In this document: piece by piece, positions 4,725-26,328 of the stretch
Layout: each line of letters starts with the position of its first letter
Position numbering within the stretch: the first letter of the stretch is position 1
DNA from: an uncultured bacterium
Lineage (GTDB): Bacteria > Methylomirabilota > Methylomirabilia > Rokubacteriales > DASRDR01
Assembly (NCBI GenBank): GCA_964509395.1
Contig: CAZDYT010000001.1
Span: 1 to 38,458, forward strand
Direction: 5' to 3'
DNA: 38,458 nucleotides
The notes under the pieces: generated by a model
Seen by the model: only the letters and a program-made list of their open reading frames with translations
Databases searched by the model: none
Told to the model about the DNA's origin: nothing
Program-made: the position numbers and the translations under genes

Positions 4725-4744
4725 GGCGAAGGGAGAGATCCCCG

Positions 4745-4978: not shown

Positions 4979-4979
4979 C

Positions 4980-6755: not shown

Positions 6756-6770
6756 GGGGGCGAGAACGCG

Positions 6771-6941: not shown

Positions 6942-6945
6942 GCCC

Positions 6946-9633: not shown

Positions 9634-10416
9634 ATGGGACAGAGTCTTAAGGAAGTCTGGCGGCATCGCGACTTGGTCCTCAGCTTTGCGGTTCGTGATG
9701 TCAAGGCGAGATACAAGCAGACAGTTTTCGGAGTGGCCTGGGCGATCTTTCAGCCGTTCGCGCTGATGCTGGTCTTCACCCTGGTCTTTTCGCGGTTCGC
9801 AAAGATACCGACCGAAGGGGTTCCCTATCCTGTCTTCTCCTATCTCAGCCTGGTCTTTTGGACCTTCTTTGCAATGACGATCTCGCAGGGTACCGTCGCC
9901 ATCGTGGCGAACGCTAACCTGGTCAGGAAAATCTACTTTCCTCGTGAAACGCTGTTGATGTCCATCGTCCTGTCGGCGGGATTGGACCTTACGGTCGCCA
10001 CGGTGATCTTCGGAGGTATGCTGTATTACTACGAGATCCCCATTACGCTGCAGGCCCTCTGGGTTCCTGTCCTACTGGTGCTGCAGACGCTCCTGGCGTT
10101 CGGTGTTATCTGCTTCACGTCGGCGATGCACGTCAACTTCCGAGACATCGGCCATGCCATCCCGCTGACACTTCAGCTCTGGATGTTCGTGAGTCCCGTT
10201 GCCTACCCACTCAGCCTGGTTCCAGCTGCGTGGCTCCCCATTTACCTCCTGAATCCCATGGCGTCGATCATCGAAGGGTATCGGTTCGCGCTCCTTGGTG
10301 GTGCTCCTCCGAATCTGGCTTATCTCGCCCTTGATAGCTGGATCACGCTCGTTGTGGCTCTAGCGGGATATGCGATGTTCAAACGTGTTGAACGAACCTT
10401 CGCGGACGTCATCTGA
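9634..10416 (+). CDS. wzm: ABC-2 type polysaccharide export permease
   Basis: 260 aa with about six hydrophobic segments. The N-terminus LVLSFAVRDVKARYKQTVFGVAWAIFQPF is typical of Wzm/TagG/KpsM-like ABC-2 permeases. It lies directly upstream of the ATPase. Confidence 0.9.
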   Translation: MGQSLKEVWRHRDLVLSFAVRDVKARYKQTVFGVAWAIFQPFALMLVFTLVFSRFAKIPTEGVPYPVFSYLSLVFWTFFAMTISQGTVAIVANANLVRKIYFPRETLLMSIVLSAGLDLTVATVIFGGMLYYYEIPITLQALWVPVLLVLQTLLAFGVICFTSAMHVNFRDIGHAIPLTLQLWMFVSPVAYPLSLVPAAWLPIYLLNPMASIIEGYRFALLGGAPPNLAYLALDSWITLVVALAGYAMFKRVERTFADVI

Positions 10417-10422
10417 CGAGGG

Positions 10423-11655
10423 TTGGCTGCAGTGGCGGACGTGGTGATTCGGTTCGACGAGATTTCCAAGCGGTATCGCTTGCGGCGTGGTTGGTATCGG
10501 TCGATTCGAGAGGAACTCCGGGAGTGGGCTCAGCGCATCGTCACCAGGAGTGGGCGGAGGGACGTTTTCTGGGCGTTGAAGAACGTGAGCTTCGATGTGG
10601 AGCAGGGCGATGTCGTCGGCTTGATAGGGCCCAATGGTGCCGGAAAGAGCACGATACTCAAGATCCTTTCTCAGGTCACGGTGCCGACGAGTGGACGGTT
10701 TGCGCTTCGTGGCCGAGTAGGAGCTCTCATCGAGATTGGTGCCGGTTTCCACCCGGACTTGACCGGTCGGGAGAACGTCTATCTGAATGGCGCGATCATG
10801 GGCATGCGGCGGCAGGAGATCGATGCGAAGTTTGACAGAATCGTCTCGTTCGCAGAGGTTGAAACATTCGTCGATACGCCTGTAAAGCACTACTCCTCCG
10901 GCATGCAGGTGCGACTCGGCTTTTCTGTCGCGGCGCACACGGACCCGGACATCCTGCTGATCGATGAGGTCTTAGCGGTCGGGGATGCCTCCTTCCAGAT
11001 AAGATGCCTGAACCGGCTTGCCGAGCTCAAAGAACAGGGAAAGACCATCATTCTGGTCTCCCATAACATGGCGAACGTCCTCCAGCATTCGAGGAAAGTA
11101 CTTTGGATCGAGGGGGGAGAAATCCGTGGATACGGTTGCCCTGACGCGGTCGTAGAGCGGTACCTCGCGTCCGTTAGAGACCGGATGCACGCGAGTGCGA
11201 CGGCCGTGTTTTCTTCGTCCGACGCTGATCAACCGATCCGGGTGGATCGGGTCTCGCTGTGCGACGTAGAGGGCCGTGTTCCGGAAAAGTTCCGGTACGG
11301 AGACGCAGTCTGTATCGACATCAGCTTTACCGTGCGCCAACCGATCCACAACCCGGTCTTCGAAGTGACGATCCAGGATGCCCATGGCTATCCGCTGGGT
11401 GGTATCACATCTCGGTTCGGGGGCCTCAAGATTGACTCAACCGTCGAACAGGGGGTCGTGCGGTTGATGCTGCGCCCGGTTCTTTTCCTGAAAGGCGACT
11501 ACGTGATCAACGTGCACATCCGTGATCAATGTATCGAGCGCTACTACGACGTGAAGAAGAGAGCCGCGGTTCTAATCGTTGATGGCCCGAGCATCGCGTC
11601 GCGAGAGGTGAGTGGACACCTGGTGTATCCGCACGAATGGCAGGTTCGGCTGTGA
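10423..11655 (+). CDS. wzt: Polysaccharide ABC exporter ATP-binding protein with C-terminal Wzt_C-like domain
   Basis: Walker A GPNGAGKST, signature YSSGMQVRLGFS and Walker B ILLIDEVLAVGD are present. A ~160 aa C-terminal extension (IRVDRVSLCDVEGR...VVRLMLRPVLFLKGDYVINVHI) follows. The start is non-ATG (TTG 10423 or GTG 10432). Confidence 0.9.
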   Translation: MAAVADVVIRFDEISKRYRLRRGWYRSIREELREWAQRIVTRSGRRDVFWALKNVSFDVEQGDVVGLIGPNGAGKSTILKILSQVTVPTSGRFALRGRVGALIEIGAGFHPDLTGRENVYLNGAIMGMRRQEIDAKFDRIVSFAEVETFVDTPVKHYSSGMQVRLGFSVAAHTDPDILLIDEVLAVGDASFQIRCLNRLAELKEQGKTIILVSHNMANVLQHSRKVLWIEGGEIRGYGCPDAVVERYLASVRDRMHASATAVFSSSDADQPIRVDRVSLCDVEGRVPEKFRYGDAVCIDISFTVRQPIHNPVFEVTIQDAHGYPLGGITSRFGGLKIDSTVEQGVVRLMLRPVLFLKGDYVINVHIRDQCIERYYDVKKRAAVLIVDGPSIASREVSGHLVYPHEWQVRL

Positions 11656-11693: not shown

Positions 11694-12653
11694 ATGGATC
11701 TGAGCGTCGTCGTGTGCACGTACAACAGGGCCGAGCTCTTGGCGGAAACGCTGGACGCGTTACTGAGGCAGGTTGTCCCAGCGGAGCTTCACTGGGAGAT
11801 CCTGGTGATGGACAACAACTCGCGAGACCGTACGCGGGAGGTGGTCGGACGCTTTGAAAGGGTAGGCGCGGTTCCGGTTCGATACATGTTTGAGGGACGC
11901 CAAGGGCTTTGTCACGCGAGAAATAGCGGGGTGAAGCATTCACGCGGCGCGATTGTGGCCTTTACGGACGATGACGTTAGGCCCGCGGGGGACTGGGCCC
12001 ACGGAGTCATCCTCGCAATGCGGGAGCATGCCGCTGATGGCGTCGGGGGGAGGGTATTACCGAGGTGGGCACTGCCTCCACCCGAGTGGCTCCTTGGGAA
12101 CACGGGCCTTCTCGGGCTGCTTGCGCTGCTGGAATCAGAGGAGTGTTCGCGAATCGAAAGAGGAAAGGGCGCACGAATCTTAGGGGCAAACATGGCATTT
12201 CGCCGTGATTTGTTCGATGCGGTGGGAGGATTCAACACAAGTCTTGGGCGCATTGGGACGAAGCTGTCCGGCGGCGAGGACACAGAATTTGTGAGCCGGG
12301 CGGTGGAGGCGGGGAAGGTCCTCGTGTATGATCCACGCCTTGTCGTGTCGCATTATGTCGGACCTTACCGAATGCGGAAGAGTTACTTCCGAAAGTGGCG
12401 CTTTGATGCCGCGGAGAACGAAGGCATGCAGCCGAGCGACATCTGCGCGCCGCGCGTGCTGGGAATCCCGCTTTACGTCTTCCGGCTACTGGCAAAGCAG
12501 CTAGCCCTGTGGTTGAAAGCCTTGGCCACTCGTGACCCTGGGGCGTTTCAAAGAGAGCTGGCCATCGTGGATAGCATCGGCTTCTTGGTCGGCTGTGCGC
12601 GAAATAGGGTGCGCTCGCGGAGAGAAGGCGGGATGAACGGCCCGAGCGGTTAG
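11694..12653 (+). CDS. Glycosyltransferase family 2
   Basis: MDLSVVVCTYNRAELL, VMDNNSRDRT, the DxD-type motif AFTDDDV and GANMAFRRDLF are present. ATG 11694 is preceded by GAAAGG. An alternative ATG at 11637 would overlap wzt by 19 nt. Confidence 0.88.
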   Translation: MDLSVVVCTYNRAELLAETLDALLRQVVPAELHWEILVMDNNSRDRTREVVGRFERVGAVPVRYMFEGRQGLCHARNSGVKHSRGAIVAFTDDDVRPAGDWAHGVILAMREHAADGVGGRVLPRWALPPPEWLLGNTGLLGLLALLESEECSRIERGKGARILGANMAFRRDLFDAVGGFNTSLGRIGTKLSGGEDTEFVSRAVEAGKVLVYDPRLVVSHYVGPYRMRKSYFRKWRFDAAENEGMQPSDICAPRVLGIPLYVFRLLAKQLALWLKALATRDPGAFQRELAIVDSIGFLVGCARNRVRSRREGGMNGPSG

Positions 12654-12835
12654 GGAGGAGTCCCGCGGAATTCGGGGTGCGTGATCCGCGCGGGGGTCTC
12701 GGAGATGCGGAACCTATGCGGGAAGGTGACGGGTGCGACGAGACGGGAAAGGGGATCGGTCGCTGTTGTTGATAGTAGCGCGATGAACGAAGAGCTACGA
12801 CGGGACGTGAAACACCGGGCGCTGAGGATCCGTAC
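12654..12835 (+). promoter_or_regulatory. Only sizeable intergenic gap in the window; candidate internal promoter/leader region
   Basis: 182 bp lie between the GT2 stop (TAG 12651-12653) and the GT4 GTG at 12836. GAGGA sits 7 nt upstream of that GTG. I could not recognise a convincing -35/-10 or -24/-12 element by eye. Confidence 0.3.
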
Positions 12836-14032
12836 GTGAGGATCGCAATGATCGTGGGTGGCTTTCCGAAGCTGTCGGAGACGTTCATTCTGGACCAAAT
12901 CACAGGATTGATCGACCTTGGCCACGAGGTGGACGTGTACGCACGCAGGAGCGTGAGCGAGTCTGCCGTCCATGATGAGGTGAAAGAGTACGATCTGCTG
13001 GCCAGGACCCACGCGTTCGACTTGCCGGGGACGCGGTGGAGTCGGGTAGAGCGGGCTCTGCGGATCTTGCTCCGCGAGATGCCTCGTCATACGAGTGTGA
13101 TGGCCCGCTGCATGAATCTGGGGCGCTACAAGAGCGTATACGCGGTGCTGAACAACGTGATGCACGTCGAGCCGTTCCTGAAGCGGAAGTACGACGTGAT
13201 CTTCTGCCATTTCGGCGGAAATGGGGTCGAGTTCGCGTTTCTCAAAGACGTGTTCCGGGAGGCACGCTTTGTCGCGATGTTCCACGGAGACGATTTGTCT
13301 CTCGGGGACGAGCAGGGACCAGAGGTGTTTAAAAGCCTCCGAAGGGTCGGCGATATGTTCCTCGTGAACACCGACTGCTACGGGGGGGCGAAGCTGCGTG
13401 AGGCTGGCTTCGAATCGGAGAAGATCGCAACCTTCCACTACGGGCTCGCGGTTGAGAAGGTCGCCTTCAGGGAGCGCGCGCCGCGCGGCGGTCGGGTCCG
13501 CATTCTGAGCGTCGCCCGGCTCGTGCCGAAGAAGGGCCTCGAGTTTGGGATTCGAGGCGTGGCGGAGCTTCAGAACGCAAATCCGCAGCTCGGGATCGAG
13601 TATCGCATTATCGGCGATGGTGAGTTGAAAGGCCGGCTGGGCCGGACCATCGGTGAGCTAGGTGGGAGCCGTAGCATCGAGCTCCTCGGGGCGTTGTCTC
13701 GCAGCGAGGTCATGCAATGGATGCACGAGTCGGACATCTTTCTCCTCCCCAGTCTGTTGGAGCAAGCGGGGATGGTGCTCGTGGAGGCACAGGCGTCGGG
13801 CATGCCGATCGTGGCTAGCCGTGTGGGTGGCGTGCCCGAGATGGTGCGCGAGGGCAGATCGGCTTTGCTGGTGCCGCCTGGAGACTCGCGAGCCATCACC
13901 TTGGCCCTCCAGCGGTTGGTCGATGACCCTGAGCGGTGGGCAGCGATGGGGCATGAGGGGCGGCGCTTCGTGGAAGAACATCACGATCTCGAGGTGCAGA
14001 AGGTGCGACTTGCCGAGCTTCTTGCGGTATGA
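12836..14032 (+). CDS. Glycosyltransferase family 4 (WcaL-like)
   Basis: N-terminus (M)RIAMIVGGFPKLSETFILDQI and GT4 C-terminal motif QAGMVLVEAQASGMPIVASRVGGVPEMV. GTG start with a GAGGA Shine-Dalgarno sequence. Confidence 0.88.
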   Translation: MRIAMIVGGFPKLSETFILDQITGLIDLGHEVDVYARRSVSESAVHDEVKEYDLLARTHAFDLPGTRWSRVERALRILLREMPRHTSVMARCMNLGRYKSVYAVLNNVMHVEPFLKRKYDVIFCHFGGNGVEFAFLKDVFREARFVAMFHGDDLSLGDEQGPEVFKSLRRVGDMFLVNTDCYGGAKLREAGFESEKIATFHYGLAVEKVAFRERAPRGGRVRILSVARLVPKKGLEFGIRGVAELQNANPQLGIEYRIIGDGELKGRLGRTIGELGGSRSIELLGALSRSEVMQWMHESDIFLLPSLLEQAGMVLVEAQASGMPIVASRVGGVPEMVREGRSALLVPPGDSRAITLALQRLVDDPERWAAMGHEGRRFVEEHHDLEVQKVRLAELLAV

Positions 14033-15336
14033 ACCGGATGGGACTGGGGGAATCGGTTAAGCCGATGGTGAATGTGCTCTTCATCGAGAAGAGCTTCGGG
14101 CTCTCCGGTTCGACAATGAGCCTTTGCACGCTGCTGGGACATCTGGACGCAGAGGCGTATCGACCTCACGTGGTCGTCTCACGCAGGGAACAAAGGGAGT
14201 ATCTCCTCCGTCACGTTGGGACTCTGAAAGAAGTGGCGTTAATCACTGAGGCGCGGAGCCTAAAATCCAGCTCCGTAGTAGAGCATCTAGTGAGACTGGT
14301 CCAATGGCGTGCCCCGCGTGCGGAGCGGGTTCTGATGTGGCTGATTGCGGTGGGCGATTTTCTGGTCGGCACCATTCCGTATGCCGTTCGTTTGTACAGC
14401 TGGGCACGAAGGCGGCGTGTCGTGCTGGTGCACCAGAACAATGGCTTCGACGCTGGCGCGCTCATCGCTGCGCGGCTCCTAGGGGCACCCATGGTTGGAT
14501 TCCAGCGCGGCGACGAGTGGAATTCATTTCTGGTTCGGAGCTTGGCGGGCTTCGTGGATTGTTACGTCGCCAACTCGGACGCAACGAGGGCCAATCTGCT
14601 GTCGCTGCATATCCCGCAAGGCCGGGTGCGGGTTGTGTATCCCCCTATCGACTTTTCGAGGTTCGATTGCGACATGCGGCGGCGCCTGCGCCGTAGGGAC
14701 TTTGGGATCCCAGAGTCAAGCCGGTGCTTCGGCATCGTAGGGATACTCGTCGAGTGGAAGGGACATGGCGTCTTTCTGCGGGCCGCGCGGCGCGTATTCG
14801 AGAGGATGCCTCAGGCGCGGGCTTTCGTCGTCGGCGACACGCCGACTGAACAAGCGCGCTACCGGGTGGAGCTGGAAGAGCTCGCTCGGGAGCTTGGCAT
14901 CACCGACCGTGTCCGGTTTATCGGCTTCAGGGAGGACATGCCCGAGGTCCTTCAGTTGCTGGACGTCGTGGTTCATGCATCGGTGCGTGCGGAGCCGTTC
15001 GGGCGGGTGATCGTTGAGGCCATGGCGATGAAGAAGCCGGTCGTGGCGAGTATGGCAGGAGGTCCAGTCGAGATCGTGGAGAGCGGGTGCAACGGCTTCC
15101 TTGTCCCCCCGGGGGACCACGACGGGCTGGCCGACCGGATTCTGGAGCTGCTGTCAGATCCGGAACGTGCTCGGCAAATGGGCGAGGAAGCGTACAGGCG
15201 CGCCTGCGATCGGTTCTCGGTTGCCTCTCACATGGAGCAAATTTACGAGGTATACGCGGCGCTCCTGGCGCCCGGTGGCCGAGTCGATGCGATTCCGAGC
15301 GGGAGGGCGGTGGCCCGCGAGGTGCGGCGACGGTGA
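14029..15336 (+). CDS. Glycosyltransferase family 4
   Basis: ATGA overlap with the upstream stop; an alternative start at MVNVLFIE is near 14065. GT4 motif PFGRVIVEAMAMKKPVVASMAGGPVEIV is present. Confidence 0.85.
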   Translation: MNRMGLGESVKPMVNVLFIEKSFGLSGSTMSLCTLLGHLDAEAYRPHVVVSRREQREYLLRHVGTLKEVALITEARSLKSSSVVEHLVRLVQWRAPRAERVLMWLIAVGDFLVGTIPYAVRLYSWARRRRVVLVHQNNGFDAGALIAARLLGAPMVGFQRGDEWNSFLVRSLAGFVDCYVANSDATRANLLSLHIPQGRVRVVYPPIDFSRFDCDMRRRLRRRDFGIPESSRCFGIVGILVEWKGHGVFLRAARRVFERMPQARAFVVGDTPTEQARYRVELEELARELGITDRVRFIGFREDMPEVLQLLDVVVHASVRAEPFGRVIVEAMAMKKPVVASMAGGPVEIVESGCNGFLVPPGDHDGLADRILELLSDPERARQMGEEAYRRACDRFSVASHMEQIYEVYAALLAPGGRVDAIPSGRAVAREVRRR

Positions 15337-15845
15337 GAATCGGCCGGGACAGGACGACAATCGCTCACTCGTTCATCCTTGCTGGAGCGTGTGTTCTGGT
15401 AGCGGCATCCCAGATCGCATTCGCCGCGCCGCCTTTGGGAGGAGTCAGGGACATCGGTGGGGGAGTCAGCACGGACCCCGTCGTGATCGCGGGGCAGGTT
15501 CGCTCAGCTGTCCGGCTGGGTAAGTTCGCGGTTGGGCAGCTTGCGGGCCCAGACGCCCTCGAGAGCTTCAATCAGACACACGGGGTTATGAGCGAGATGT
15601 ACGCCCAAGTCAGGCTGGCAGTCACGGGGATGTACTGGGCGAAGCAGTACGCCAGGTTTCCGGATCCTCTCCTGGACTATGAATCGAAGAGAACGCATGA
15701 GGCGTGGGTACAGATCAGAGGCGTCGTGGACAGGCATATCCGCGGTGACTCGCCGGTGATCTCGCCGGGACAGATCCCCGCGGCCATTCACGACCTGAAT
15801 TCGGCCATAGCGATTCTCGAGCAAGTATTGGAGCTGATGCCTTGA
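15333..15845 (+). CDS. Small secreted hypothetical protein (~170 aa)
   Basis: GTG 15333 overlaps the upstream TGA (GTGA). The signal-peptide-like N-terminus is VRIGRDRTTIAHSFILAGACVLVAASQIAFA/APP. The upstream part of track ORF 15087..15845 overlaps the GT4 CDS and is treated as alternative-frame noise. I recognised no family motif. Confidence 0.5.
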   Translation: MRIGRDRTTIAHSFILAGACVLVAASQIAFAAPPLGGVRDIGGGVSTDPVVIAGQVRSAVRLGKFAVGQLAGPDALESFNQTHGVMSEMYAQVRLAVTGMYWAKQYARFPDPLLDYESKRTHEAWVQIRGVVDRHIRGDSPVISPGQIPAAIHDLNSAIAILEQVLELMP

Positions 15846-17170
15846 ATGCTCTGCGACTTCGCTGGGCCGTGGCCAGCGCTTTCATCCTAGCCACGATCGC
15901 GACGCTCCTCGGCGGCACGGTGGGCAGTGGCCTGCTCGGGGGGAGCCTCCTCGATGGCACCTTGAGCGCCGACCCCTGGGGCTGGGCGTCGAATCCGGTC
16001 ATTGCGGCCGACGACGGTGGAACGCTGTATGCGGCGTGGGCGCAGCACCGGCGGCCCGGTATCTGGGAACTTTCCGCGATCTACGTCAAGAAATGGGCGA
16101 ACGGGCAGTGGGAGCAACTCGGCGGCAGGATCGGACACGCCCGGGGCCATGCGGGGGCGGGCGCCACCTGGCCAAGCGCCTACGCGCCCTCCATCGCTCT
16201 CCTCGGCAAGGCACCCTACGTGGCGTGGTACGAGGGTGGAGGGTATGGCTGGGGAACTCTTAGGGGCGTTCATTTCGGCTCCTCCGCCTTTGTGGCCCAC
16301 TGGGATGGCGCGAGGTGGGTCGAGGATCCAAATACCGAACAGTTGAATGGAGCCCTGAATACGGACGTCGGCTTGAAGGAAACCGGGTATATCCCATCCG
16401 CTCGCCGTCCGAAGCTTGCCGTCGTCAGTGGCCGTCTCTATGCGGCGTGGATCGAGACGCGCGTCATGCCCGGCTCCGGTGTGAGCTACAACGTATTGGT
16501 CGTCAAACACTTGCAGGACGGCCGTTGGGTCCAGGACGGGAAAGATCTATGGGAGAGCCGGCAGGTGGGCGATGCGACGATCATCGATCTCGCGATCGCC
16601 GACCTCGGAGGTGAGCCGTGGATCGCCTGGTCGGAGTCCAAGCGCAGGGCAGGGTACCGTCCGGCGGCTGTCCGGGTCGCCAGGCTTTCCCTGGGCGATT
16701 GGGTCACCGTCGGGGATCGTCTCAATGTCTCGCCCCGAGGGTACGCAAACTATCTCGCGATGGCTGGACTTGCCGGCCGTGCCTATGTGGCTTGGCAGGA
16801 GCGCCCGAGTAGCGGGAATAACCGGATTTATGTCAAGCACTGGGACGGGAGCCGGTGGGTGGCTCATGGCGACGCTTTGAACGCGGATCCAGACGCTGGG
16901 GAAGCCGGCCGCGCGGCGCTCGTCGGCGACGAGGGGGGCCTGTGGCTGACGTGGCCCGAGGGCCGTCCCGGACAGCGGGCCAAGCTTTACGTAAGGTCCT
17001 TCGGCAGCACCGGCTGGAGCGCGCCGCTTGCGGTCCCGCTCAGGGATTCGGAAAGTGGCGCGGCGGACACGCCCGCGCTAGCAATAAGCCGCCGGACGCC
17101 ATACGTCATCTGGGCGGAAAAGAGCCCGCCGCCAGCTACCAAGCAGATCTACGTGAGGGCGCTCCCATGA
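15842..17170 (+). CDS. Secreted or anchored repeat protein, predicted 6-7 bladed beta-propeller (hypothetical)
   Basis: TTG 15842 overlaps the upstream TGA. The N-terminus MNALRLRWAVASAFILATIATLLGG is hydrophobic. Seven ~50-60 aa repeats centre on an aromatic-x-x-W motif: LYAAW, PYVAW, LYAAW, PWIAW, AYVAW, LWLTW, PYVIW. Each is followed by a second strand ending in W (YVKKWANGQW, VAHWDGARW, VKHLQDGRW, YVKHWDGSRW). Confidence 0.65.
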   Translation: MNALRLRWAVASAFILATIATLLGGTVGSGLLGGSLLDGTLSADPWGWASNPVIAADDGGTLYAAWAQHRRPGIWELSAIYVKKWANGQWEQLGGRIGHARGHAGAGATWPSAYAPSIALLGKAPYVAWYEGGGYGWGTLRGVHFGSSAFVAHWDGARWVEDPNTEQLNGALNTDVGLKETGYIPSARRPKLAVVSGRLYAAWIETRVMPGSGVSYNVLVVKHLQDGRWVQDGKDLWESRQVGDATIIDLAIADLGGEPWIAWSESKRRAGYRPAAVRVARLSLGDWVTVGDRLNVSPRGYANYLAMAGLAGRAYVAWQERPSSGNNRIYVKHWDGSRWVAHGDALNADPDAGEAGRAALVGDEGGLWLTWPEGRPGQRAKLYVRSFGSTGWSAPLAVPLRDSESGAADTPALAISRRTPYVIWAEKSPPPATKQIYVRALP

Positions 17171-19374
17171 CCGATCGGGCAGCTAGCGCCGCACGTACGC
17201 TCGCCGTCGCCTGTCTGGCCCTTACTTTGTCTGGCACCCAAACGCGACTGGAAGCTCGAGAATTGCCGCCCAATATCTGGGTCAATCTACGGGCCGGAGG
17301 CGTGGCTACGGGTAACGGCATCGGGGACGAAGGCTACAACTCCTTTGTCTACACCCCCGCCCTCAGGAAGGCACTGGTCTTTGGGCAATACCATGCGATT
17401 AGCGTGAGCGATGGGGAGGACCAGAACGCCCTGCTGGCCTACGATTTCGCTCTGAATCGGTGGGAGCTCCTCGAGGTCACCGAGGCCGCTTGGAGCGAGT
17501 TCCTTCCGGGTGTGGGCCATGATCAGGGCAACGTCGCGGTTGACACCTTACACGATCTTTACATCACCAAGGGCAACCAGACGCTGCACGGCAACACCGC
17601 CCACACGACGTACGTATACGATCTCAAGGCGGGACGCGGAAAGCGAATGATGCCACCCGTGGAGCCATACATCGGCGAGTCGGCGGCGAGCGCCTTTGAT
17701 CCGGATCACGATCTCGTCCTGACGACTAAGGGGCCTTCCTGGCTTTACGACCACAATGCCAACGTGTGGACGGAGGTCCCCAACAGTCCCTCGCACCGTA
17801 TGTCTCCGGGACTTGTTTACGACACGAAGCAGCGGGTCTTCGTCATGTTTGGGGGCAGTGACTCGAGCGAAACGTGGAGCTTCGATGCCGGTACGCGGGT
17901 CTGGACGAAGCGAAATCCTCCTGTGTCTCCTCCAGGAAGGACTGCGCCAAACGTGGCCTTCGACAGCGTGAATGGTGTGGCCCTGCTGGTAGGAGGGCAC
18001 GGGAAGGGCGGTGTCGAGCTGTCGGACGTGTGGGTGTACGAGACAGCCCTCAACCGTTGGAGCGAGTTGCCAGTCTCCGCGCCGCCGGGGATCAATCCCG
18101 GGGCCGGCAACAACCTGACGTACGACTCACACCACCAGGTGTTCCTTCTCAAGAGCACCACGGACCTGCGCGACGTTTGGGCATTCAAGTATGTGCCCTC
18201 CCGGGTTGGACAATCGCTTCGGGCCGGCAACGGGACGCTCACCAACGACAGGCCTTGGCCAACACCGCCGCCCGTAATTCTTCCACTTGGCTTTGAATCG
18301 CCGGCAACTGCCGCTTCCCTGCCGATTGGCCCAGTCGACCTCCCGCTCAGAACATGGGTGGCCCGGCGCCTTCCGCCACATGGTAAGGGCCCGCAGGCGG
18401 GGAAGCACATGCGGCTCGCGCACAACCCAGTCAACGGCCGTCTGTATCTCCTCGGCGGCGACTACGCGGGCCTCATCGGCTACGACTCCGGACGCAACGA
18501 GGTCTACTCCTACTCGGTCGCGGATGACACGTGGGTGCTGGAATATCCGTATTGCGGGCCGCCCGGCTCGGTCCAGCCCAGCCATCCTGACGAGGTCGGC
18601 TGGGTGTACGACACTCTACGCCACATTTTCTGGGTGATCCCCGGCTATATGTCGGCGGCTGCGGAGGACCCGTGCCCGCAGAATCTCGTGCTCGATCGCA
18701 TCATGACATTCGATCCGATCACGAAGCAGTGGGCGGTTCCCAATCGCACGATGAGCCATCTTAACGGCGGCGTGAAGTTCGCGGTCTATGATCCCGTGAC
18801 GGACGCCATCATCCGGTTCATCGGGAGCGGCATCCAACACTACGCCATCGCGAGCAACAGGGAGTCAGTGTACCTGTACGACAACGTCCTCCAAGAGGCC
18901 AGACTCACGGAGGAGTACGGCGCGATCGATCCCGTCGGGAGGGTGATCTACGTCATCGAGCCGGTGCAGGGCCGGCTCTATCGCTACTGGATCGACCAGC
19001 GCCGGCTGGAGTTCGTCGTCAACACTCCGGTGAGCAACCCGGTCCCGCCCGGCGGCGCCGATGACTACTGGCCATGGAACAGCGCCATGCCCATCTGGGA
19101 TTCGATCAACGGGGTCCTTCTCTGGCCCCGGATTCGGGATTTCTCGACCGCGAACATCACCCTCTACATCTACCACCCGGATACGGGACAGTGGGAAAAG
19201 GACGCGATGGTGCAGCCGAACGGGCTGCCCGTCCGGGGGAACACGGCCGTCTTCGACCCGGATCAGAACGTCTTGATGGTGTTGGGTGGGACGTACCCAA
19301 GGAACGAGTATCTGTTTCTGTACCGCTACGGAGCCGGCCCGGCAAGGTCCCGGACTGGCGCCGCACGGCCTTAG
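17167..19374 (+). CDS. Secreted Kelch-repeat protein with two predicted propeller domains
   Basis: ATGA overlap at 17167. Signal-like N-terminus MTDRAASAARTLAVACLALTLSG. Kelch-like blades are visible in VFVMFGGSDS..TWSFD, ALLVGGHGKGGVELSDVWVYE..NRWSEL, LYLLGGDYAG and VLMVLGGTYP. A Pro-rich linker (PWPTPPPVILPLGF) separates the two halves. The 5' part of track ORF 16855..19374 is alternative-frame overlap. Confidence 0.75.
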   Translation: MTDRAASAARTLAVACLALTLSGTQTRLEARELPPNIWVNLRAGGVATGNGIGDEGYNSFVYTPALRKALVFGQYHAISVSDGEDQNALLAYDFALNRWELLEVTEAAWSEFLPGVGHDQGNVAVDTLHDLYITKGNQTLHGNTAHTTYVYDLKAGRGKRMMPPVEPYIGESAASAFDPDHDLVLTTKGPSWLYDHNANVWTEVPNSPSHRMSPGLVYDTKQRVFVMFGGSDSSETWSFDAGTRVWTKRNPPVSPPGRTAPNVAFDSVNGVALLVGGHGKGGVELSDVWVYETALNRWSELPVSAPPGINPGAGNNLTYDSHHQVFLLKSTTDLRDVWAFKYVPSRVGQSLRAGNGTLTNDRPWPTPPPVILPLGFESPATAASLPIGPVDLPLRTWVARRLPPHGKGPQAGKHMRLAHNPVNGRLYLLGGDYAGLIGYDSGRNEVYSYSVADDTWVLEYPYCGPPGSVQPSHPDEVGWVYDTLRHIFWVIPGYMSAAAEDPCPQNLVLDRIMTFDPITKQWAVPNRTMSHLNGGVKFAVYDPVTDAIIRFIGSGIQHYAIASNRESVYLYDNVLQEARLTEEYGAIDPVGRVIYVIEPVQGRLYRYWIDQRRLEFVVNTPVSNPVPPGGADDYWPWNSAMPIWDSINGVLLWPRIRDFSTANITLYIYHPDTGQWEKDAMVQPNGLPVRGNTAVFDPDQNVLMVLGGTYPRNEYLFLYRYGAGPARSRTGAARP

Positions 19375-19383
19375 GGAGGCGGG

Positions 19384-20697
19384 ATGCGCGATTTTCTGGT
19401 CACGGGCGTCATTTTCGCTCTGCTGCCGGCCTGCTTCTTTTCGCCATGGATCGGCGTGCTGGTATGGTCGTGGATCGGCTACATGAACCCTCACCGCCTC
19501 ACGTGGAGCTTCGCCTACACCATGCCGTTCGCCCAAATGGTGGCCATCGCTACGCTGAGTGGACTGCTCTTCACGAAGGACCGGATGCCGCTGCCGAGGA
19601 GGCGGGAAGTCTACCTGCTCTTGGCGCTCTGGGGTGTGTTCCTCGCCTCGACGTTCAACGCGCTTCATCCGGATCCCGCGTGGGAGCAGCTGACCAAGGT
19701 GTCGAAGATCTTGCTCATGACCTTCGTGACGCTTCTGCTCTTCCAGGATCGGCGGAAGCTGCGTGTCCTATTCTACGTGATCGCGCTGTCGATCGGGTTC
19801 TTTGGGCTCAAGGGCGGAATTTGGGCCGTAGCCACGGGCGGTGCCAATAGCGTCCTTGGACCGCCAGACTCGTTCATCGAGGGCAATACGGACCTGGGTC
19901 TGGCGCTCAACATGGTGTTGCCTATCCTGCTGCTCCTGAGTCGGGACGAAAGGCGCCCGTGGCTCCGATATCTCCTCCGGGCCACGTTCGGGTTCTCGAT
20001 CATCGCGGTCCTCTTCACGTACTCACGGGGCGCGGTCCTGGGACTGGCGGTCGTCCTGCCCCTCATGCTTCTCAAGAGCCGGATAAGGCTCGCGATTATT
20101 CCGTTGGCGCTCGTTGCGGCGCTGTTCGGAAAACCGCTGATCGAGTCGGTGATGCCGGCACCATGGCTCGAGCGCATGGGAACGATCGGGACTCCCGAGG
20201 AAGACGCGTCTGCTAGCATGCGCCTCAACGCCTGGAGGGTCGCGTATCTACTCGCATGGGACCACCCGTTTCTCGGAGCGGGATTCAGGCCCTTCTCACC
20301 AGAGGTTTATTCGAGGTACTCGCCGGACGAACGGTGGAACGACAATCAGGACGCGCACAGCATCTATCTGCAGGTCCTGGCGGAACATGGTTTCACCGGC
20401 TTGGCCCTCTACGGCGGCCTGATTCTGTCTACGCTGCTGAGCCTGAGACACATAGTGCGGAGGTCACGGCGAGACCCGGGGGGGGGGAGGTGGTTGGGCG
20501 ATGCAGCCCGAGCGCTGGAGGTGAGCCTAGCGGGGTTCTTGGTGAGTGGTACGTTTCTGAGCATTTCGTACTTCGATCTCTTCTTCCATGTCGTCGCCAT
20601 GACGACGATCTTGCGGCTTCTCCTTGACCAGCAGACGGCAGAGTCCAGCCGGGGCACTGTTCCGGCGGCCATCAGGCAGGACCTCGTGAGGCGTTGA
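19384..20697 (+). CDS. O-antigen ligase/polymerase-like (Wzy_C) polytopic membrane protein, exosortase-A-system-associated type
   Basis: N-terminus MRDFLVTGVIFALLPACFFSPWIGVLVWSWIGYMNPHRLTW matches my recollection of the exosortase-A-associated putative O-glycosylation ligase family. It has 10 or more hydrophobic segments and the Wzy_C-like FTYSRGAVLGLAVV. GGGAGG lies upstream of the ATG. Confidence 0.85.
   Translation: MRDFLVTGVIFALLPACFFSPWIGVLVWSWIGYMNPHRLTWSFAYTMPFAQMVAIATLSGLLFTKDRMPLPRRREVYLLLALWGVFLASTFNALHPDPAWEQLTKVSKILLMTFVTLLLFQDRRKLRVLFYVIALSIGFFGLKGGIWAVATGGANSVLGPPDSFIEGNTDLGLALNMVLPILLLLSRDERRPWLRYLLRATFGFSIIAVLFTYSRGAVLGLAVVLPLMLLKSRIRLAIIPLALVAALFGKPLIESVMPAPWLERMGTIGTPEEDASASMRLNAWRVAYLLAWDHPFLGAGFRPFSPEVYSRYSPDERWNDNQDAHSIYLQVLAEHGFTGLALYGGLILSTLLSLRHIVRRSRRDPGGGRWLGDAARALEVSLAGFLVSGTFLSISYFDLFFHVVAMTTILRLLLDQQTAESSRGTVPAAIRQDLVRR
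20478..20487 (+). repeat. G10 homopolymer inside the ligase-like CDS
   Basis: The sequence reads gagaCCCGGGGGGGGGGagg, encoding P-G-G-G-R. It is the longest mononucleotide run I noticed in the window. Confidence 0.9.
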
Positions 20698-20700
20698 ACG

Positions 20701-22572
20701 ATGTGTGGGATCGCGGGTGTCCTCAGGCAGGACGGAAAGCCCGTAGGGGAGCAGCTCCTGCGGGCGATGACCTCAATCCTCGCTCACCGCGGGCCGGATG
20801 GGGAGGGTTATCTGATTCGGAGGCCTGTCGGGCTGGGCCACCGGCGGCTTGCGATCATCGATCTCGTCAGCGGCCATCAACCCATGGCGAACGAGGACGG
20901 GTCTGTGGCGCTGGTGTTCAACGGAGAGATCTATAACTTCCGCGAGCTGCGCCGGGAACTCGAGGTCCACGGGCATGTCTTCCGGACCACTTCGGACAGC
21001 GAGGTTATTCTGCGCGCGTACGAGGCATACGGGGTGGAGTGTCTCGGCCGGCTCAGGGGCATGTTCGCCTTCGCCATTTGGGACGGACGGCGCCGACGCC
21101 TGTTCCTCGCTCGCGACCGGGTCGGGATCAAGCCGCTCGTCTATGCCTGGGACGGGCGGCGACTCCTCTTCGCCTCCGAGCTCAAAGCGATCCTTCAGGA
21201 TCCGTCGGTGCCGAGAGACCTGGACTGGGAGGCTCTGAGGGACTACCTGACCTTCTCGTACATTCCCAGCCCACGGACGATCTTTCGCGGGATCCGCAAA
21301 CTCGCCCCGGCGTCGTACCTGGTGCTCGATCTGGATCGCGGTGAGCCCGAGGTCCGGCGTTACTGGGACCTCCAGTTCCTCCCGGACGAAACTCGCACAG
21401 AGGCGGAGTGGGTCGAAGGCCTCCGCTGGCGTCTCCAGGACTCGGTCCGAAGCCATCTCGTGAGCGACGTGCCGATCGGTGCCTTTCTGAGCGGGGGAAT
21501 GGATTCGAGCACGGTGGTCGCGCTCATGTCGCAGGAGGTGGGGGAGCCGGTCCGCACGTTCTCGATCGGCTTCGACGAGGCGGATTTCGACGAGCTCCGG
21601 TATGCCAGAGCCGTGGCTCGTCGTTACGGGACCGATCACTATGAGTTTGTGGTGAAACCGGATGCTCTCGAAGCAATGCCGCGCCTCATGTGGCAGTTCG
21701 ACGAGCCCTTCGCCGACAGCTCCGCGGTTCCGACCTATTACGTATCCAAGATCACCCGGGAACATGTGACGGTGGCGCTGTCGGGCGACGGAGGGGACGA
21801 GAACTTCGCTGGCTATGGGCGCTACTTGCAGGCGCTGAGGTGGCACGAGCGCCTGGACCATCCGCTGGGTGCCATAGCACGGCCGCTCTTTCGACTGGCG
21901 GCCAGCCTGCTTGCCCCGGGCGCCCGGGGACGAGGATACCTGGAGCTGTTGGGCTCGGAACCGACCGAGCGCTACTTCCGGATGGTCACGTATCAACGGA
22001 CGGGGACACTCCGCCGGCTTCTCACCCCGGACGCGCAAGCTCACGTCGCACCGATTGTGACTCCGGCGCTGTTTCGCCAACTTGTCCGGGAGGGGCGGGC
22101 CTCCGACTACCTGGCGACGCTCCAGTATCTGGACGTCCGGACCTACCTCCCCGAGGACATCCTCACCAAGATCGATCGGACCAGCATGCTGGTCTCGCTC
22201 GAGACCCGGGTGCCGCTCTTGGATCACCTCCTCATGGAGTACGTGGCGAGAATGCCGAGCCGACTCAAGCTGCGAAACGGCGCTGGCAAGGCAGTGCTCA
22301 AAGGGGTCATGGCGGAGGACCTGCCGAGCGAGATTCTCGGGCGACGCAAGATGGGGTTCGGCGTGCCGATCGGGACGTGGTTTCGGCGAGAGCTGGCCGG
22401 ATACGCTCGCGAGATCCTCGTCGACAGGCGGACCCGCCAGCGAGGGCTCATCAATGCCCACGCCGTGGAGGCCCTGCTGGAGGAACATCGCACCGGCAAG
22501 CGCGAGCGGTCCAGTCAGATCTGGCTCTTGCTCTGTCTTGAGGAGTGGGCTCGTCGGTGGTGGGACCGGTGA
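20701..22572 (+). CDS. Asparagine synthetase (glutamine-hydrolysing) family amidotransferase, exosortase-system-associated type
   Basis: MCGIAGV N-terminus with HRGPDGEG, HRRLAIIDL, NGEIYNF and SDSEVIL. PP-loop AFLSGGMDSSTVVALM is present. Confidence 0.93.
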   Translation: MCGIAGVLRQDGKPVGEQLLRAMTSILAHRGPDGEGYLIRRPVGLGHRRLAIIDLVSGHQPMANEDGSVALVFNGEIYNFRELRRELEVHGHVFRTTSDSEVILRAYEAYGVECLGRLRGMFAFAIWDGRRRRLFLARDRVGIKPLVYAWDGRRLLFASELKAILQDPSVPRDLDWEALRDYLTFSYIPSPRTIFRGIRKLAPASYLVLDLDRGEPEVRRYWDLQFLPDETRTEAEWVEGLRWRLQDSVRSHLVSDVPIGAFLSGGMDSSTVVALMSQEVGEPVRTFSIGFDEADFDELRYARAVARRYGTDHYEFVVKPDALEAMPRLMWQFDEPFADSSAVPTYYVSKITREHVTVALSGDGGDENFAGYGRYLQALRWHERLDHPLGAIARPLFRLAASLLAPGARGRGYLELLGSEPTERYFRMVTYQRTGTLRRLLTPDAQAHVAPIVTPALFRQLVREGRASDYLATLQYLDVRTYLPEDILTKIDRTSMLVSLETRVPLLDHLLMEYVARMPSRLKLRNGAGKAVLKGVMAEDLPSEILGRRKMGFGVPIGTWFRRELAGYAREILVDRRTRQRGLINAHAVEALLEEHRTGKRERSSQIWLLLCLEEWARRWWDR

Positions 22573-23690: not shown

Positions 23691-24409
23691 TGGGGATCCT
23701 GGACCGGCGACAGAAGTGCCGCAAACTGATCCAGCGATACTACCGGGGCCCATCGCGCGAGGAGCTCCTCGATTCGACGGCCGCCGCACTCGCCCGACCC
23801 TCGGACGTCCTTCTGGACGCCGGATGCGGTGCTGACTTCCCGCTCCTCTCGCGCTACGGCCCGAAGGTTGCGTTCGCAGTCGGCGTCGACTTATGCTCTC
23901 CGGCCCCGAACGTGCTCGGGCGCACGAAGGTGATCGTCGGCAACCTCGAATCCCTCCCGATACGGAGTCAGAGCGTCGATCTGATTGTCTCGCGCTCTGT
24001 CGTCGAGCACCTCGATCACCCCGTCGAGACCTTTAAAGAATTCGGCAGGGTGCTCCGCTCCGGTGGACGACTCGTCTTCACGACGCCGAACAAATATTAC
24101 TACTCGTGTCTCGTTGCTCTGCTCACCCCTGGGTGGCTCAAAGACGTGTATTTCCAGAAGGTGTTTGGCGGCGATGCGTACGCTCACTTTCCCGTCCGCT
24201 ATCGCGCGAACACGGCTCGGGCCTCCCGGGACCTTGCTCGCGTCACCGGCTTCGAGCTGACCCGCACCGAGGCTATCGAGCACTACCCGTACTACCTGAT
24301 GTTCTCGCCTGCCCTGTTCCGCCTGGGGATCCTTTACGACGAGATCGTCCGGGCGCTCGGGTTCACTCAGCTTCAGAGCACGTGGCTCGTGGTGATGGAG
24401 AAGAAGTAG
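23687..24409 (+). CDS. Class I SAM-dependent methyltransferase
   Basis: ATGA overlap with the upstream stop. Motif I VLLDAGCGADFPLL, then SVDLIVSRSVVEHLDHP and GGRLVFTTPN. Confidence 0.85.
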   Translation: MMGILDRRQKCRKLIQRYYRGPSREELLDSTAAALARPSDVLLDAGCGADFPLLSRYGPKVAFAVGVDLCSPAPNVLGRTKVIVGNLESLPIRSQSVDLIVSRSVVEHLDHPVETFKEFGRVLRSGGRLVFTTPNKYYYSCLVALLTPGWLKDVYFQKVFGGDAYAHFPVRYRANTARASRDLARVTGFELTRTEAIEHYPYYLMFSPALFRLGILYDEIVRALGFTQLQSTWLVVMEKK

Positions 24410-24411
24410 GG

Positions 24412-26328
24412 ATGTGTGGCATCGCGGGGATAGTCCACGCCGACCCGGGGTTCCCGGTGTCCCGTGAGCTGCTGGGCCGCATGACTGATGCCATGGCTCA
24501 CCGGGGGCCGGACGCCGAGAGTGTTCACCTGTGGCGTGGAGCCGGTTTCGGCCACCGGCGGCTCAGCATCATCGACCTTGCCACGGGTGATCAGCCAATG
24601 TTCAACGAGGACCGCACGAAGGCGGTAATCCTCAACGGAGAGATCTACAATTTCCCCGAGCTGCGGTCGGAGCTGGAGGGCCGCGGTCACCGATTCACCA
24701 CCCGCGCAGACACCGAGGTGATCGTCCATGCTTACGAGGAGTTCGGAGTGGGCTGCGTGGCTCGGTTGCGAGGGATGTTTGCGTTCGCGCTCTGGGATGA
24801 GCCGGAGCGACGGCTCCTGCTGGCGCGGGATCGGGTGGGTAAGAAGCCACTCTACTACACGCATGCCGGCGAGCGCCTCTGTTTTGCCTCGGAGCTGAAA
24901 GCACTGCTCCAGGATGCGAGCCTCAAGCGGGGTGTCAGCGCGGAATCGCTCGATGACTACTTCTCGTTCGGCGCAGTCCAGGCACCAGCCACCATCTTTC
25001 AGGGGGTCATCCAGCTCCCGCCCGGCCATTACCTCGTTTGGGAGCGCGGCGCGCCACGAATCGCCGAGTACTGGGACGTTCCCCGAGGTGAGGTGGTGCG
25101 TCGCAGTGAAGTCGAAACTGTAGAGGCGTTCGCCGAGGTCTTCGCCGACGCCGTTCGCGTGCGGCTCGTCAGCGACGTTCCCCTGGGCGCGTTCCTGAGC
25201 GGCGGCGTGGACTCGAGTGCCGTGGTGGACATGATGGCGCGTCTGTCGAACTGGCCGGTGGTGACGACCAGCGTCGGCTTCTCCGAGCGGGCTTTCAGCG
25301 AGCTCGGCCATGCGCGAGCGGTAGCCACCGCCGTGGGCGCCGAGCACCACGAGGTCCTCGTGGAGCCGCGGGCAGTCGACGTGCTCCCGCGGCTCGTCTG
25401 GCATCTGGACGAACCCTTCGCAGATTCGTCGGCCCTTCCCACGTACTATGTGTCTCGAGCGGCGCGCGAGCAGGTCACCGTGGCCCTCTCGGGTGACGGT
25501 GGCGATGAGGTCTTCGCGGGGTATCAGCGTCGCTATGGCTTTCACCGCTGGGAGGCGCGCCTCCGTCGATGGCTACCGACCTCCGTTCGGACAGGCGTCA
25601 TGGCTCCGCTCGGGGCGGTCTACCCAAAGGCGGACTGGCTGCCGCGTCCCCTCCGGGCCCGCTACTTCCTTCAGAATCTCGGCACGACACCGGAGCGCGC
25701 GTACTTCTCGGATCTCTCGCTCTTCCGGGACGACGAGAAGGCCCGGCTGCTCTCCGCCGATTTCAGAAGTGAGCTCGCCGACCACGATCCCTTCACGGCC
25801 TTCGCCCGCCACTTCGAGAGGGTCCGCGGGCTCGACTCGCTGAGTCAACTCCTCTACGTTGACCTGAAGACTTGGCTGGCCAACGACATCCTCGTGAAGG
25901 TCGACCGGATGAGCATGGCGAACTCGCTCGAGGTCCGTGCCCCGCTCCTCGACCACAAGGTCATCGAGTTTGCCGCCACTGTGCCGCCCGATCTGAAGTA
26001 CCGAGGGCGCACTTCGAAGTACCTTCTGAAGCGTCATCTGGAAGGGCGCGTGCCGCGGTCTGTGATCCACCGGCCGAAGCAGGGGTTCGAGATCCCGCTG
26101 GCGAGCTGGCTCCGCGGCGAGTTGCGAGAGATGGCGGCGGATCTGCTCCTCTCTCCGCGATCGCTCGCGCGCGGATATGTGCGGCCCGAGGGAGTGCGCC
26201 GGCTCTGGCAGGATCATCAGACCAGAGTGCGGGATCACTCGGCCCGAATCTGGGCGCTCATCGTCCTCGAATTGTGGCACCGCTCGTTCGTGGATGAGGC
26301 GCCCGGGCAAGGAGCCCCGAGGTCATGA
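24412..26328 (+). CDS. Asparagine synthetase (glutamine-hydrolysing) family amidotransferase, second intact paralog
   Basis: The true start is ATG 24412 (MCGIAGIVHAD), 2 nt after the upstream TAG. Track ORF 24106.. carries a spurious 102-aa extension overlapping the methyltransferase. HRGPDAES, HRRLSIIDL, NGEIYNF, ADTEVIV and PP-loop AFLSGGVDSSAVV are present. Confidence 0.93.
   Translation: MCGIAGIVHADPGFPVSRELLGRMTDAMAHRGPDAESVHLWRGAGFGHRRLSIIDLATGDQPMFNEDRTKAVILNGEIYNFPELRSELEGRGHRFTTRADTEVIVHAYEEFGVGCVARLRGMFAFALWDEPERRLLLARDRVGKKPLYYTHAGERLCFASELKALLQDASLKRGVSAESLDDYFSFGAVQAPATIFQGVIQLPPGHYLVWERGAPRIAEYWDVPRGEVVRRSEVETVEAFAEVFADAVRVRLVSDVPLGAFLSGGVDSSAVVDMMARLSNWPVVTTSVGFSERAFSELGHARAVATAVGAEHHEVLVEPRAVDVLPRLVWHLDEPFADSSALPTYYVSRAAREQVTVALSGDGGDEVFAGYQRRYGFHRWEARLRRWLPTSVRTGVMAPLGAVYPKADWLPRPLRARYFLQNLGTTPERAYFSDLSLFRDDEKARLLSADFRSELADHDPFTAFARHFERVRGLDSLSQLLYVDLKTWLANDILVKVDRMSMANSLEVRAPLLDHKVIEFAATVPPDLKYRGRTSKYLLKRHLEGRVPRSVIHRPKQGFEIPLASWLRGELREMAADLLLSPRSLARGYVRPEGVRRLWQDHQTRVRDHSARIWALIVLELWHRSFVDEAPGQGAPRS

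Follow-up and report, generated by a model that had tools for sequence, protein, structure and literature searches.

A conserved set of putatively exported propeller and helical modules in exosortase-type polysaccharide loci

Introduction

What do three genes for putatively exported proteins contribute to a polysaccharide locus in which they are embedded between a glycosyltransferase gene and a ligase gene? The question arises from a stretch of 38,458 nucleotides of an uncultured bacterium of the Rokubacteriales (NCBI GenBank assembly GCA_964509395.1, contig CAZDYT010000001.1, positions 1 to 38,458 of the forward strand), hereafter the window, where three genes that we call A, B and C sit between a GT4 glycosyltransferase and a PEP_O_lig_1 ligase (Table 1). 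An original prediction, made from the letters of the DNA, had described them as three coupled secreted proteins and a candidate polymer-handling complex. To our knowledge, the periplasmic side of exosortase polysaccharide systems, including the role of PEP_O_lig_1, is almost unknown, and searches of the literature on exosortase/PEP-CTERM systems together with Kelch, propeller, O-antigen ligase or Wzt found no description of the A, B and C genes.

The trio consists of four modules in two sub-units: B with the N-terminal propeller of C (C-N), and A with the C-terminal propeller of C (C-C), the latter often together with the ligase. The reading that we tentatively favor is that these modules form a Sec-exported accessory assembly in a subset of XrtA/PEP-CTERM loci, which would bind, and may process, the exported glycan.

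Gene junctions and export

The three genes are chained, as had been predicted, by 4-nt overlaps in which the GTG start of A meets the TGA of the GT4 gene (GTGA, 15333-15336), the TTG start of B the TGA of A (TTGA, 15842-15845) and the ATG start of C the TGA of B (ATGA, 17167-17170), and a purine-rich box of GGAG/GAGG type is located 8-11 nt upstream of all three starts. The stoichiometric co-production that the original prediction had read from this arrangement is weakened, as such overlaps occur at 11 of the 28 junctions of the operon, so that the trio is not singled out within the window; translational coupling is a property of the whole operon rather than of A-B-C.

A hydrophobic N-terminal segment is present in A, B and C and is retained by their homologs, several of which have AxA sites or lipoboxes; both the non-ATG starts and the signal segments are thus backed by relatives. 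Export was judged by a heuristic criterion, namely a basic n-region, an h-region of 10-20 residues and a c-region with AxA or a lipobox. The signal of A is a textbook n-h-c region with AFA, spanning about residues 1-31 (MRIGRDRTTIAHS-FILAGACVLVAASQIAFA/APP, the slash marking the putative cleavage site). In B the hydrophobic segment covers residues 9-23 (Kyte-Doolittle 2.28), with an h-region of 18 residues that is modeled as a helix (3-22) followed by a disordered stretch. The segment of C (residues 5-19, hydropathy 1.65) is the weakest of the three and has a shorter h-region ending LSG/T. By these heuristic, sequence-level measures all three proteins would be exported by the Sec route.

The prediction that none of the three ends in a PEP-CTERM signal is borne out by the C-termini (..VLELMP in A, ..IYVRALP in B and ..RTGAARP in C): PEP does not occur within the final 40 residues, nor is there a hydrophobic segment at the C-terminus. 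We also noticed that a proline directly precedes the stop codon in about three quarters of the A-family members, and that B ends in ..ALP and C in ..ARP.

Synteny and fusion of the modules

The gene order of the window is found again in locus L001 (JGI), which reads GT4-GT4-A-B-C-ligase-AsnB with a C of 727 aa, while L015 reads B-C-ligase-AsnB-GT4. Loci L003/L004 (NCBI), L006 and L007 (ENA) have GT4-A-B followed by a short Kelch protein of 351-357 aa that is 56-61% identical to C residues 1-345, and residues 378-735 of C match a separate gene for an exported protein or lipoprotein on the other strand, elsewhere in the same locus (32-42% identity). At L003, the stand-alone 351-aa Kelch whose gene comes directly after B shares 60% identity with C-N, and the product of the separate gene L003:19590-20894(-) shares 40% with C-C. 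Stand-alone C-C genes carry an N-terminal signal or a lipobox, and the linker that joins the two halves of C is missing where they are separate genes. Since C-N and C-C are separate genes elsewhere, C is a fusion of two modules. In L005 the order is B-Kelch (C-N), with A 2.3 kb downstream. The adjacency of GT4 and A is conserved across loci, in every locus C-N comes after B or the two are fused, and the A/B and B/C overlaps of 4 nt are kept in L001, L003/L004, L006 and L007. The recurrence of the same overlaps in independent loci at about 50% protein identity is more than chance would give.

Fusions join the modules further. B and C-N form a single open reading frame (ORF) in three metagenome-assembled genomes (MAGs) of Nannocystaceae and in L008; P0033, P0034 and P0036 are of the same kind, and P0060 (1208 aa) unites B, C-N and C-C in one polypeptide. 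L016 (NCBI GCA_030157125.1, 9516-12259) has no B; its A gene overlaps by 4 nt with the gene for a 752-aa protein that combines a different Kelch with C-C, the latter 60% identical over the aligned region, and PEP_O_lig_1 and then AsnB follow. In the window, L001, L015 and L016, the ligase gene comes directly after C or after a gene whose product contains C-C. The A-family profile matches only exosortase-type loci, and not the stand-alone B+C-N fusions. The originally predicted conserved unit therefore stands as to order and overlaps, which recur in related loci, and has to be redrawn as to composition, being really four modules in two sub-groups.

These observations contradict the idea that A, B and C are unrelated hypothetical genes merely packed into a long operon, without functional unity, which we regard as most improbable. 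In its favor are the many 4-nt overlaps throughout the operon and a word-index homology search with A that returned only A itself. Against this stand the conserved order and overlaps, the multiple gene fusions, and an A family, brought out by an exhaustive search, that has members in these same loci.

A separate observation concerns two contigs, L008 and L009, which were assigned to Woesearchaeota and Aenigmatarchaeota bins and whose B+C-N(+FN3) proteins are 46-50% identical to bacterial ones. Their presence on DPANN-assigned contigs indicates mis-binning or cross-domain transfer.

Gene A: a small helical protein

Contigs with B homologs carry, at the position of A, a gene of 150-170 aa whose product is 27-37% identical to A and has its motifs in common. 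An exhaustive phmmer search of 1.84 billion representatives gave a family of 48 representatives, nearly all of 150-170 aa and 16 of them with E <= 1e-10; in the nearest relative the C-terminal half is 95% identical at the amino acid level. The G+C content at third codon positions (GC3, 0.72) matches that of neighboring genes. A is a genuine gene, the founder of a family without annotation; that it is an orphan or spurious gene is ruled out by the positional homologs and the phmmer family. The conserved motifs are QLR.A..LG, Y.LIR.A, F.DPLLD, AW...R.PVD and a C-terminal ..LP. The family alignment has hydrophobic periodicity of alpha type in four segments split by Pro/Gly-rich breaks, in agreement with the predicted helical character of the protein, and the mature part would form about four amphipathic helices. 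Neither A nor its family has a match in Pfam, NCBIfam or PDB.

Two further observations were made on this family. P0127 (581 aa) is called as a single ORF with a GT4 glycosyltransferase and an A-family domain. It could be a true fusion that joins a cytoplasmic enzyme to an exported protein, or else an artifact of a frameshift or of gene calling at the conserved GT4/A overlap. Locus L003 encodes a second A paralog directly after Wzt (L003:512-964, profile E = 3e-19) and a second, divergent Kelch gene (L003:5489-6607), from which it appears that the module is duplicated there.

Gene B: a seven-bladed propeller rich in tryptophan

The AlphaFold2 (AF2) model of B, built from an alignment of 34 sequences, has seven four-stranded blades with a mean predicted local distance difference test (pLDDT) of 90.3 and a predicted template modeling score (pTM) of 0.88; together with a Trp content of 5.7% this agrees with the W-rich repeat propeller that had been proposed. 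The blades bear the motifs P.LAV, YVAW.E and IYVK.W.G..W, and blade 2 has an invariant insert, WYEGGGYGWG. B has about 35 full-length relatives with identities of 45-54% and a further one with 84%, all of them metagenomic and hypothetical or unnamed. B itself has no Pfam or NCBIfam match, although 16 of the 34 family members weakly match NCBIfam NF053835 (best 3.7e-07), and sequence and profile searches of PDB with A, B and both families gave nothing usable. A and B are two protein families that carry no annotation.

In a propeller, the D-A loops, strand-A starts, strand-B ends and B-C loops lie by convention on the top face, around the mouth of the channel, where a ligand or active site is usually located. 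Of the 17 polar residues that are invariant in the B family, 16 occupy these positions, counting the strand-C start with the B-C loops; the invariant residues include D44, H69, E131, N173, R188, E205, E320, D349, R357, E373, D409, E426 and K427. We infer that they cluster on a ligand face or pocket, a placement derived from strand topology and not measured.

The structural neighbors of B found by Foldseek are all carbohydrate-active propellers, from the glycoside hydrolase (GH) and polysaccharide lyase (PL) families GH145, GH33, PL24/25, GH93 and GH43, with template modeling (TM) scores of 0.45-0.55 at 9-14% identity, a level of similarity generic to propellers. The top matches are the GH145 structures 5mum, 5mvh and 5muk (E ~1e-9, TM 0.52-0.54, root-mean-square deviation 6.6-8.2 Å, 13-14% identity), to which no sequence-level match was found; GH145 is a family of BT3686-type alpha-L-rhamnosidases with the catalytic His on the posterior face. 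The ulvan lyases of PL24/25 are represented by 7drq, 6jq9 and 6byp.

Membership of three of these families was considered. For the GH33 sialidase/BNR group, which is marked by Asp-box repeats and a FRIP motif with the catalytic Arg triad, neither an Asp-box (S-x-D-x-G-x-T-W) nor [FY]RIP occurs in A, B or C, the likeness is one of structure only (TM 0.43-0.50), and the B-family profile meets the sialidase chain 10qf at E = 0.47. B does not match BNR_4 (PF15892), a profile of 272 positions with a cutoff of 27.3 bits that takes in the PL25 ulvan lyases; its distant relatives P0040 and P0043-45 do so only at about positions 224-267 of the 272, which is one repeated blade motif. GH43 matches were obtained for 3 of 34 B-family members, the best (6.3e-06, 26.2 bits) below the cutoff of 32.2 bits.

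Could B, C-C or both be an enzyme, such as a glycoside hydrolase or lyase, that cuts or edits the polymer in the periplasm? Glycanases are encoded in many polysaccharide operons (PslG, AlgL, BcsZ), the top structural neighbors of B are enzymes, and both the ligand face of the B family (Asp, Glu, Arg, His, Lys) and C-C have many invariant polar residues. Moreover, the uridine diphosphate (UDP)-sugar dehydrogenases and amidotransferases encoded by the host loci suggest uronic-acid chemistry of the type on which lyases act. We nevertheless consider an enzyme unlikely: there is no sequence match to a GH or PL family, the sialidase motifs are missing from B, the BNR_4 matches are confined to some 40 positions of distant relatives, and those to GH43 stay below cutoff. 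One motif is repeated almost perfectly from blade to blade through all seven, as is more usual for binding propellers than for enzymes, and the beta-helix Pel9A-like proteins present in L005 and L006 are better enzyme candidates.

Gene C: two Kelch propellers and a linker

The double Kelch propeller expected of C was recovered. Its AF2 model (pLDDT 81.8) comprises two six-bladed propellers joined by a disordered linker, with the orientation of the domains left undefined (pTM 0.52). A Kelch assignment was based on a profile match within the Pfam Kelch clan (PF24681, PF13964, PF01344) together with a six-bladed fold of four-stranded blades. C-N matches PF24681 with 82.5 bits against a 50-bit cutoff, and for C-C the Kelch_6 profile is found in all 14 aligned members; the C-C family profile also matches Kelch structures and designs in PDB at 2.5e-18, Keap1 and muskelin among them. 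Full-length relatives of C are 46-58% identical.

The two halves differ in what is conserved. Invariant polar residues are dense in C-C (K413, H414, R425, D432, R443, E445, D475, D482, R485), which also has conserved cysteines at C463 and C503. In C-N invariant polar residues are few, in agreement with its middle position in the fusions, and it looks like a connector.

Two enzymatic identities for C were tried and rejected. The copper enzymes galactose oxidase and GlxA are characterized by a Tyr-Cys cross-link pair and by two His and one Tyr as copper ligands, and in a test of conservation only, these ligand residues were not conserved: the C-N residues conserved to at least 85% comprise no His and no Cys, and the only invariant His of C-C is H414, to which a Y462-C463 pair is added but no second conserved His. 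For the NanM/YjhT mutarotases, C scores 16-19 bits, far from the cutoffs of 243-416 bits (NF010730, TIGR03547, TIGR03548).

With the domain orientation undefined, the Foldseek search with full-length C was dominated by generic tandem propellers (TM 0.26-0.4 overall), the bacterial top matches being BT4663, BT4673 and GH74 enzymes at 0.26-0.31. Clear homology to characterized but unrelated families was not found for A, B or C.

Kelch propellers are classic protein-interaction modules, as the Keap1 and muskelin matches recall, and the propellers could be protein-protein scaffolds, or acceptor substrates of an O-glycosylation-type ligase, with no direct binding of glycan. Bacterial O-oligosaccharyltransferases modify disordered segments rich in Pro, Thr, Ser and Ala, the linker of C (residues 348-384) is of this kind, and the neighboring ligase belongs to a family named putative O-glycosylation ligase. 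The Kelch-type GlxA moreover activates the glycan synthase CslA by complex formation (PMC11022532). We hold this explanation to be quite improbable, as the linker is not conserved and disappears where C-N and C-C are separate genes, the residues of a GlxA-type copper site are not conserved, and the putative charged pockets of B and C-C would point to a small-molecule or sugar ligand.

Comparison with known systems

A-B-C belong with the exported propeller proteins that accompany polysaccharide systems. In Vibrio cholerae, the propeller of Bap1/RbmC binds the cell's own exopolysaccharide, Vibrio polysaccharide (VPS), through one defined pocket (bioRxiv 10.64898/2026.08.03.742583). Like A-B-C, these are exported beta-propellers encoded beside exopolysaccharide genes. 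Theirs, however, is an eight-bladed propeller accompanied by beta-prism or beta-gamma-crystallin domains, and no sequence relationship was detected; A-B-C has three propellers and a helical partner, lies inside the biosynthetic operon and is linked to a WaaL-like ligase.

The precedent raises the alternative that the propellers are secreted matrix proteins or adhesins that work outside the cell, cross-linking or anchoring the exopolysaccharide once it is finished, and are not involved in its assembly. There are documented propeller adhesins whose genes lie next to those for the biosynthesis of the very polysaccharide that they bind (PMC10102183; bioRxiv 10.64898/2026.08.03.742583), and secreted proteins consisting of a B+C-N fusion stand by themselves outside polysaccharide loci. 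In addition, FN3, Ig-like, PKD and dockerin domains are found in relatives of B and C-N; of these, FN3, Ig-like and dockerin partners are typical of extracellular glycan-active or adhesive proteins. Distant relatives of B are lipoproteins. A matrix role is, in our view, no more probable than an enzymatic one: no route across the outer membrane is evident, A, B and C have no PEP-CTERM or other sorting signal, and their conserved, tight and translationally coupled embedding between glycosyltransferases and ligase fits a role in the envelope better.

GlxA of Streptomyces is a membrane-anchored, extracytoplasmic Kelch-type propeller that is encoded together with polysaccharide synthesis genes and binds the synthase CslA in a complex (PMC11022532). 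C resembles it in being Kelch-type, predicted extracytoplasmic and encoded with polysaccharide synthesis genes. GlxA differs as a seven-bladed copper enzyme with a Tyr-Cys cofactor and His/Tyr ligands, a site that is not conserved in C-N or C-C, and its partner is a processive synthase rather than an ABC (ATP-binding cassette) exporter and a ligase.

The GH145, PL24 and PL25 propellers are seven-bladed, and with GH33 they are the best structural neighbors of B. B differs from them in the low similarity given above and in having no BNR_4, Asp-box or FRIP; BNR_4 is a domain that PL25 ulvan lyases carry (PMC13193363). BT4663 and BT4673, hybrid two-component sensors of Bacteroides, and the GH74 xyloglucanases share with C a two-propeller build and are envelope-located and glycan-binding, but their propellers are not of Kelch type, and neither kinase or regulator domains nor the catalytic motifs of GH74 are present in C. 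Finally, NF053835, named 'PDIAV motif-containing lipoprotein', has a blade repeat motif in common with B, although B itself does not match it and the family is uncharacterized and offers no functional information.

Proposed role of the modules

The locus of the window belongs, by Pfam and NCBIfam profiles, to the XrtA/PEP-CTERM-type exopolysaccharide loci. One neighborhood encodes the PrsK kinase (TIGR02916, 1.4e-129), EpsI (TIGR02914, 5.2e-27, within the exosortase ORF), the PEP_O_lig_1 ligase (TIGR03097, 1.5e-131) and an XrtA-system amidotransferase, for which TIGR03108 is the top match with 704 bits, yet below its cutoff of 817 bits. Host loci of the related modules are of exosortase type by the same components (PrsK, EpsI, XrtA amidotransferase and PEP_O_lig_1), and the same Wzm/Wzt pair is found in L001, L003 and L016.

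In ABC-transporter-dependent pathways, the glycan is made in the cytoplasm and then exported across the inner membrane. Here it would be built by the glycosyltransferases of the locus and moved across by Wzm/Wzt, and A, B and C would be exported to the same side of the membrane (periplasmic or outer side). B, C-N and C-C, which the gene fusions mark as one assembly, would act there as a single physical unit, with C-N connecting B and C-C; it would most likely bind the polymer through putative conserved charged pockets of B and C-C, and may also trim or remodel it. A would be a small helical adaptor tied to C-C. Given that A and C-C are tied to the neighboring PEP_O_lig_1, the assembly would probably work next to this WaaL-like ligase, at or just after the ligation or release step. 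The complex proposed originally is thus supported by the fusions (B+C-N, B+C-N+C-C), while the polymer handling ascribed to it draws on gene context and generic fold likeness. The FN3, Ig-like and dockerin partners of relatives agree with this reading as well, and both of its parts have a precedent, polymer binding in the Bap1/RbmC propellers and complex formation in GlxA-CslA.

A stronger version of the ligase link would make A and C-C dedicated periplasmic cofactors of PEP_O_lig_1. They would capture either the acceptor or the undecaprenyl diphosphate (Und-PP)-linked glycan that Wzm/Wzt delivers and present it to the ligase, and B and C-N would be an additional arm for glycan recognition. 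This seems to us somewhat less probable than an enzymatic or matrix role; if true, it would be a previously undescribed accessory complex for a ligase of WaaL/PglL type.

Several observations weigh against the accessory assembly that we favor, or narrow it. Besides the generic level of the fold likeness of B and C and the derivation of the B pocket from topology, propellers are also common platforms for protein-protein interaction. L003 and L005-L007 have no ligase gene within 10 kb, and L017 has C-C without A, so the link to the ligase is not universal. The Nannocystaceae B+C-N fusions adjoin flagellin, FliD and phospholipase D genes, not polysaccharide genes, and this sub-unit therefore needs no exosortase locus. 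B is also rare, with about 35 clusters among 5.8 billion proteins and, in a genome scan made with the closer sequences, 6 loci among 185,579 species representatives. The module is accordingly a rare accessory to a subset of exosortase loci and not core machinery, which speaks against a general role.

Other features of the window

The window is one long plus-strand operon of about 63% G+C (Table 1). It encodes seven glycosyltransferases, four methyltransferases, one carbamoyltransferase, two GDSL proteins and three AsnB-type amidotransferases, as well as FemAB-like and GNAT proteins and a polysaccharide deacetylase. As predicted, components of the outer-membrane polysaccharide export (OPX) and polysaccharide co-polymerase (PCP) types are missing: no Poly_export/SLBB or Wzz domain was found by Pfam in A, B, C or any of the 30 large ORFs of the window. 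For the implied role of the trio as a stand-in for these components there is no evidence.

Table 1. Genes A, B and C, the modules of C, and the exporter, glycosyltransferase and ligase genes of the window
Feature	Position	Strand	Evidence
Gene A, predicted exported small protein of 170 aa	15333..15845	+	GTGA overlap, positional homologs, phmmer family
Gene B, predicted exported seven-bladed beta-propeller of 442 aa	15842..17170	+	TTGA overlap, AF2 model
Gene C, 735 aa	17167..19374	+	
C-N, residues 1-345: weak signal segment and six-bladed Kelch propeller	17167..18201	+	PF24681 3.6e-23
C linker, residues 348-384: Pro/Thr/Ser/Ala-rich, predicted disordered	18208..18318	+	pLDDT < 50
C-C, residues 385-735: second six-bladed Kelch-type propeller	18319..19374	+	Kelch profile, synteny, conservation
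GT4 glycosyltransferase; stop codon overlaps the start of gene A	14029..15336	+	Pfam
PEP_O_lig_1, WaaL/Wzy_C-type membrane ligase with DUF5935	19384..20697	+	TIGR03097 1.5e-131; Pfam Wzy_C, DUF5935
Wzm/Wzt ABC exporter; Wzt with C-terminal carbohydrate-binding domain	9634..11655	+	PF01061, PF00005, PF14524

The three AsnB-type amidotransferases (757-2637, 20701-22572 and about 24409-26328), the carbamoyltransferase and methyltransferases at 3684-6755, and the carbohydrate-binding domain of Wzt point to an ABC-transporter-dependent glycan within an exosortase locus, which is an unusual combination. The glycan is probably end-capped and amidated.

Only three sizeable intergenic gaps interrupt the operon (4725-4979, 6756-6945 and 12654-12835, of 255, 190 and 182 nt), and these are possible internal promoters or regulatory sites. 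A promoter and terminator scan of 12500-21000, a region that includes only the last of the three gaps, gave no signal above chance.

Toward the end of the window, the exosortase/EpsI ORF (35867-37432, plus strand) has its EpsI/DUF3485 match confined to residues 315-520, and its N-terminal part of about 300 residues has no exosortase match in Pfam. It is overlapped by an opposite-strand ORF of 555 aa (36692-38359, minus strand) with no matches. A 390-aa protein encoded at 29483-30655, whose gene overlaps the 3' end of the preceding GT4 gene by 4 nt, has only weak alpha/alpha-toroid matches (SQHop_cyclase_C 3.4e-07, Pec_lyase 5e-04) and could be a glycan-active enzyme of the locus.

Implications

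In many environmental bacteria, the formation of flocs and biofilms is driven by polysaccharide systems of the exosortase (PEP-CTERM) type. The rarity of the module means that it explains a subset of these systems and not the pathway in general. For that subset, a conserved set of four putatively exported modules, tied together by synteny and fusion and, in the case of A with C-C, tied to the ligase, provides concrete small targets for the study of how an exported glycan is captured, attached or organized. Should the modules do no more than bind the polymer, they would be new both as glycan-specific probes and as constituents of the matrix; should they act in support of the ligase, its class of enzyme would have its first accessory factors in them.

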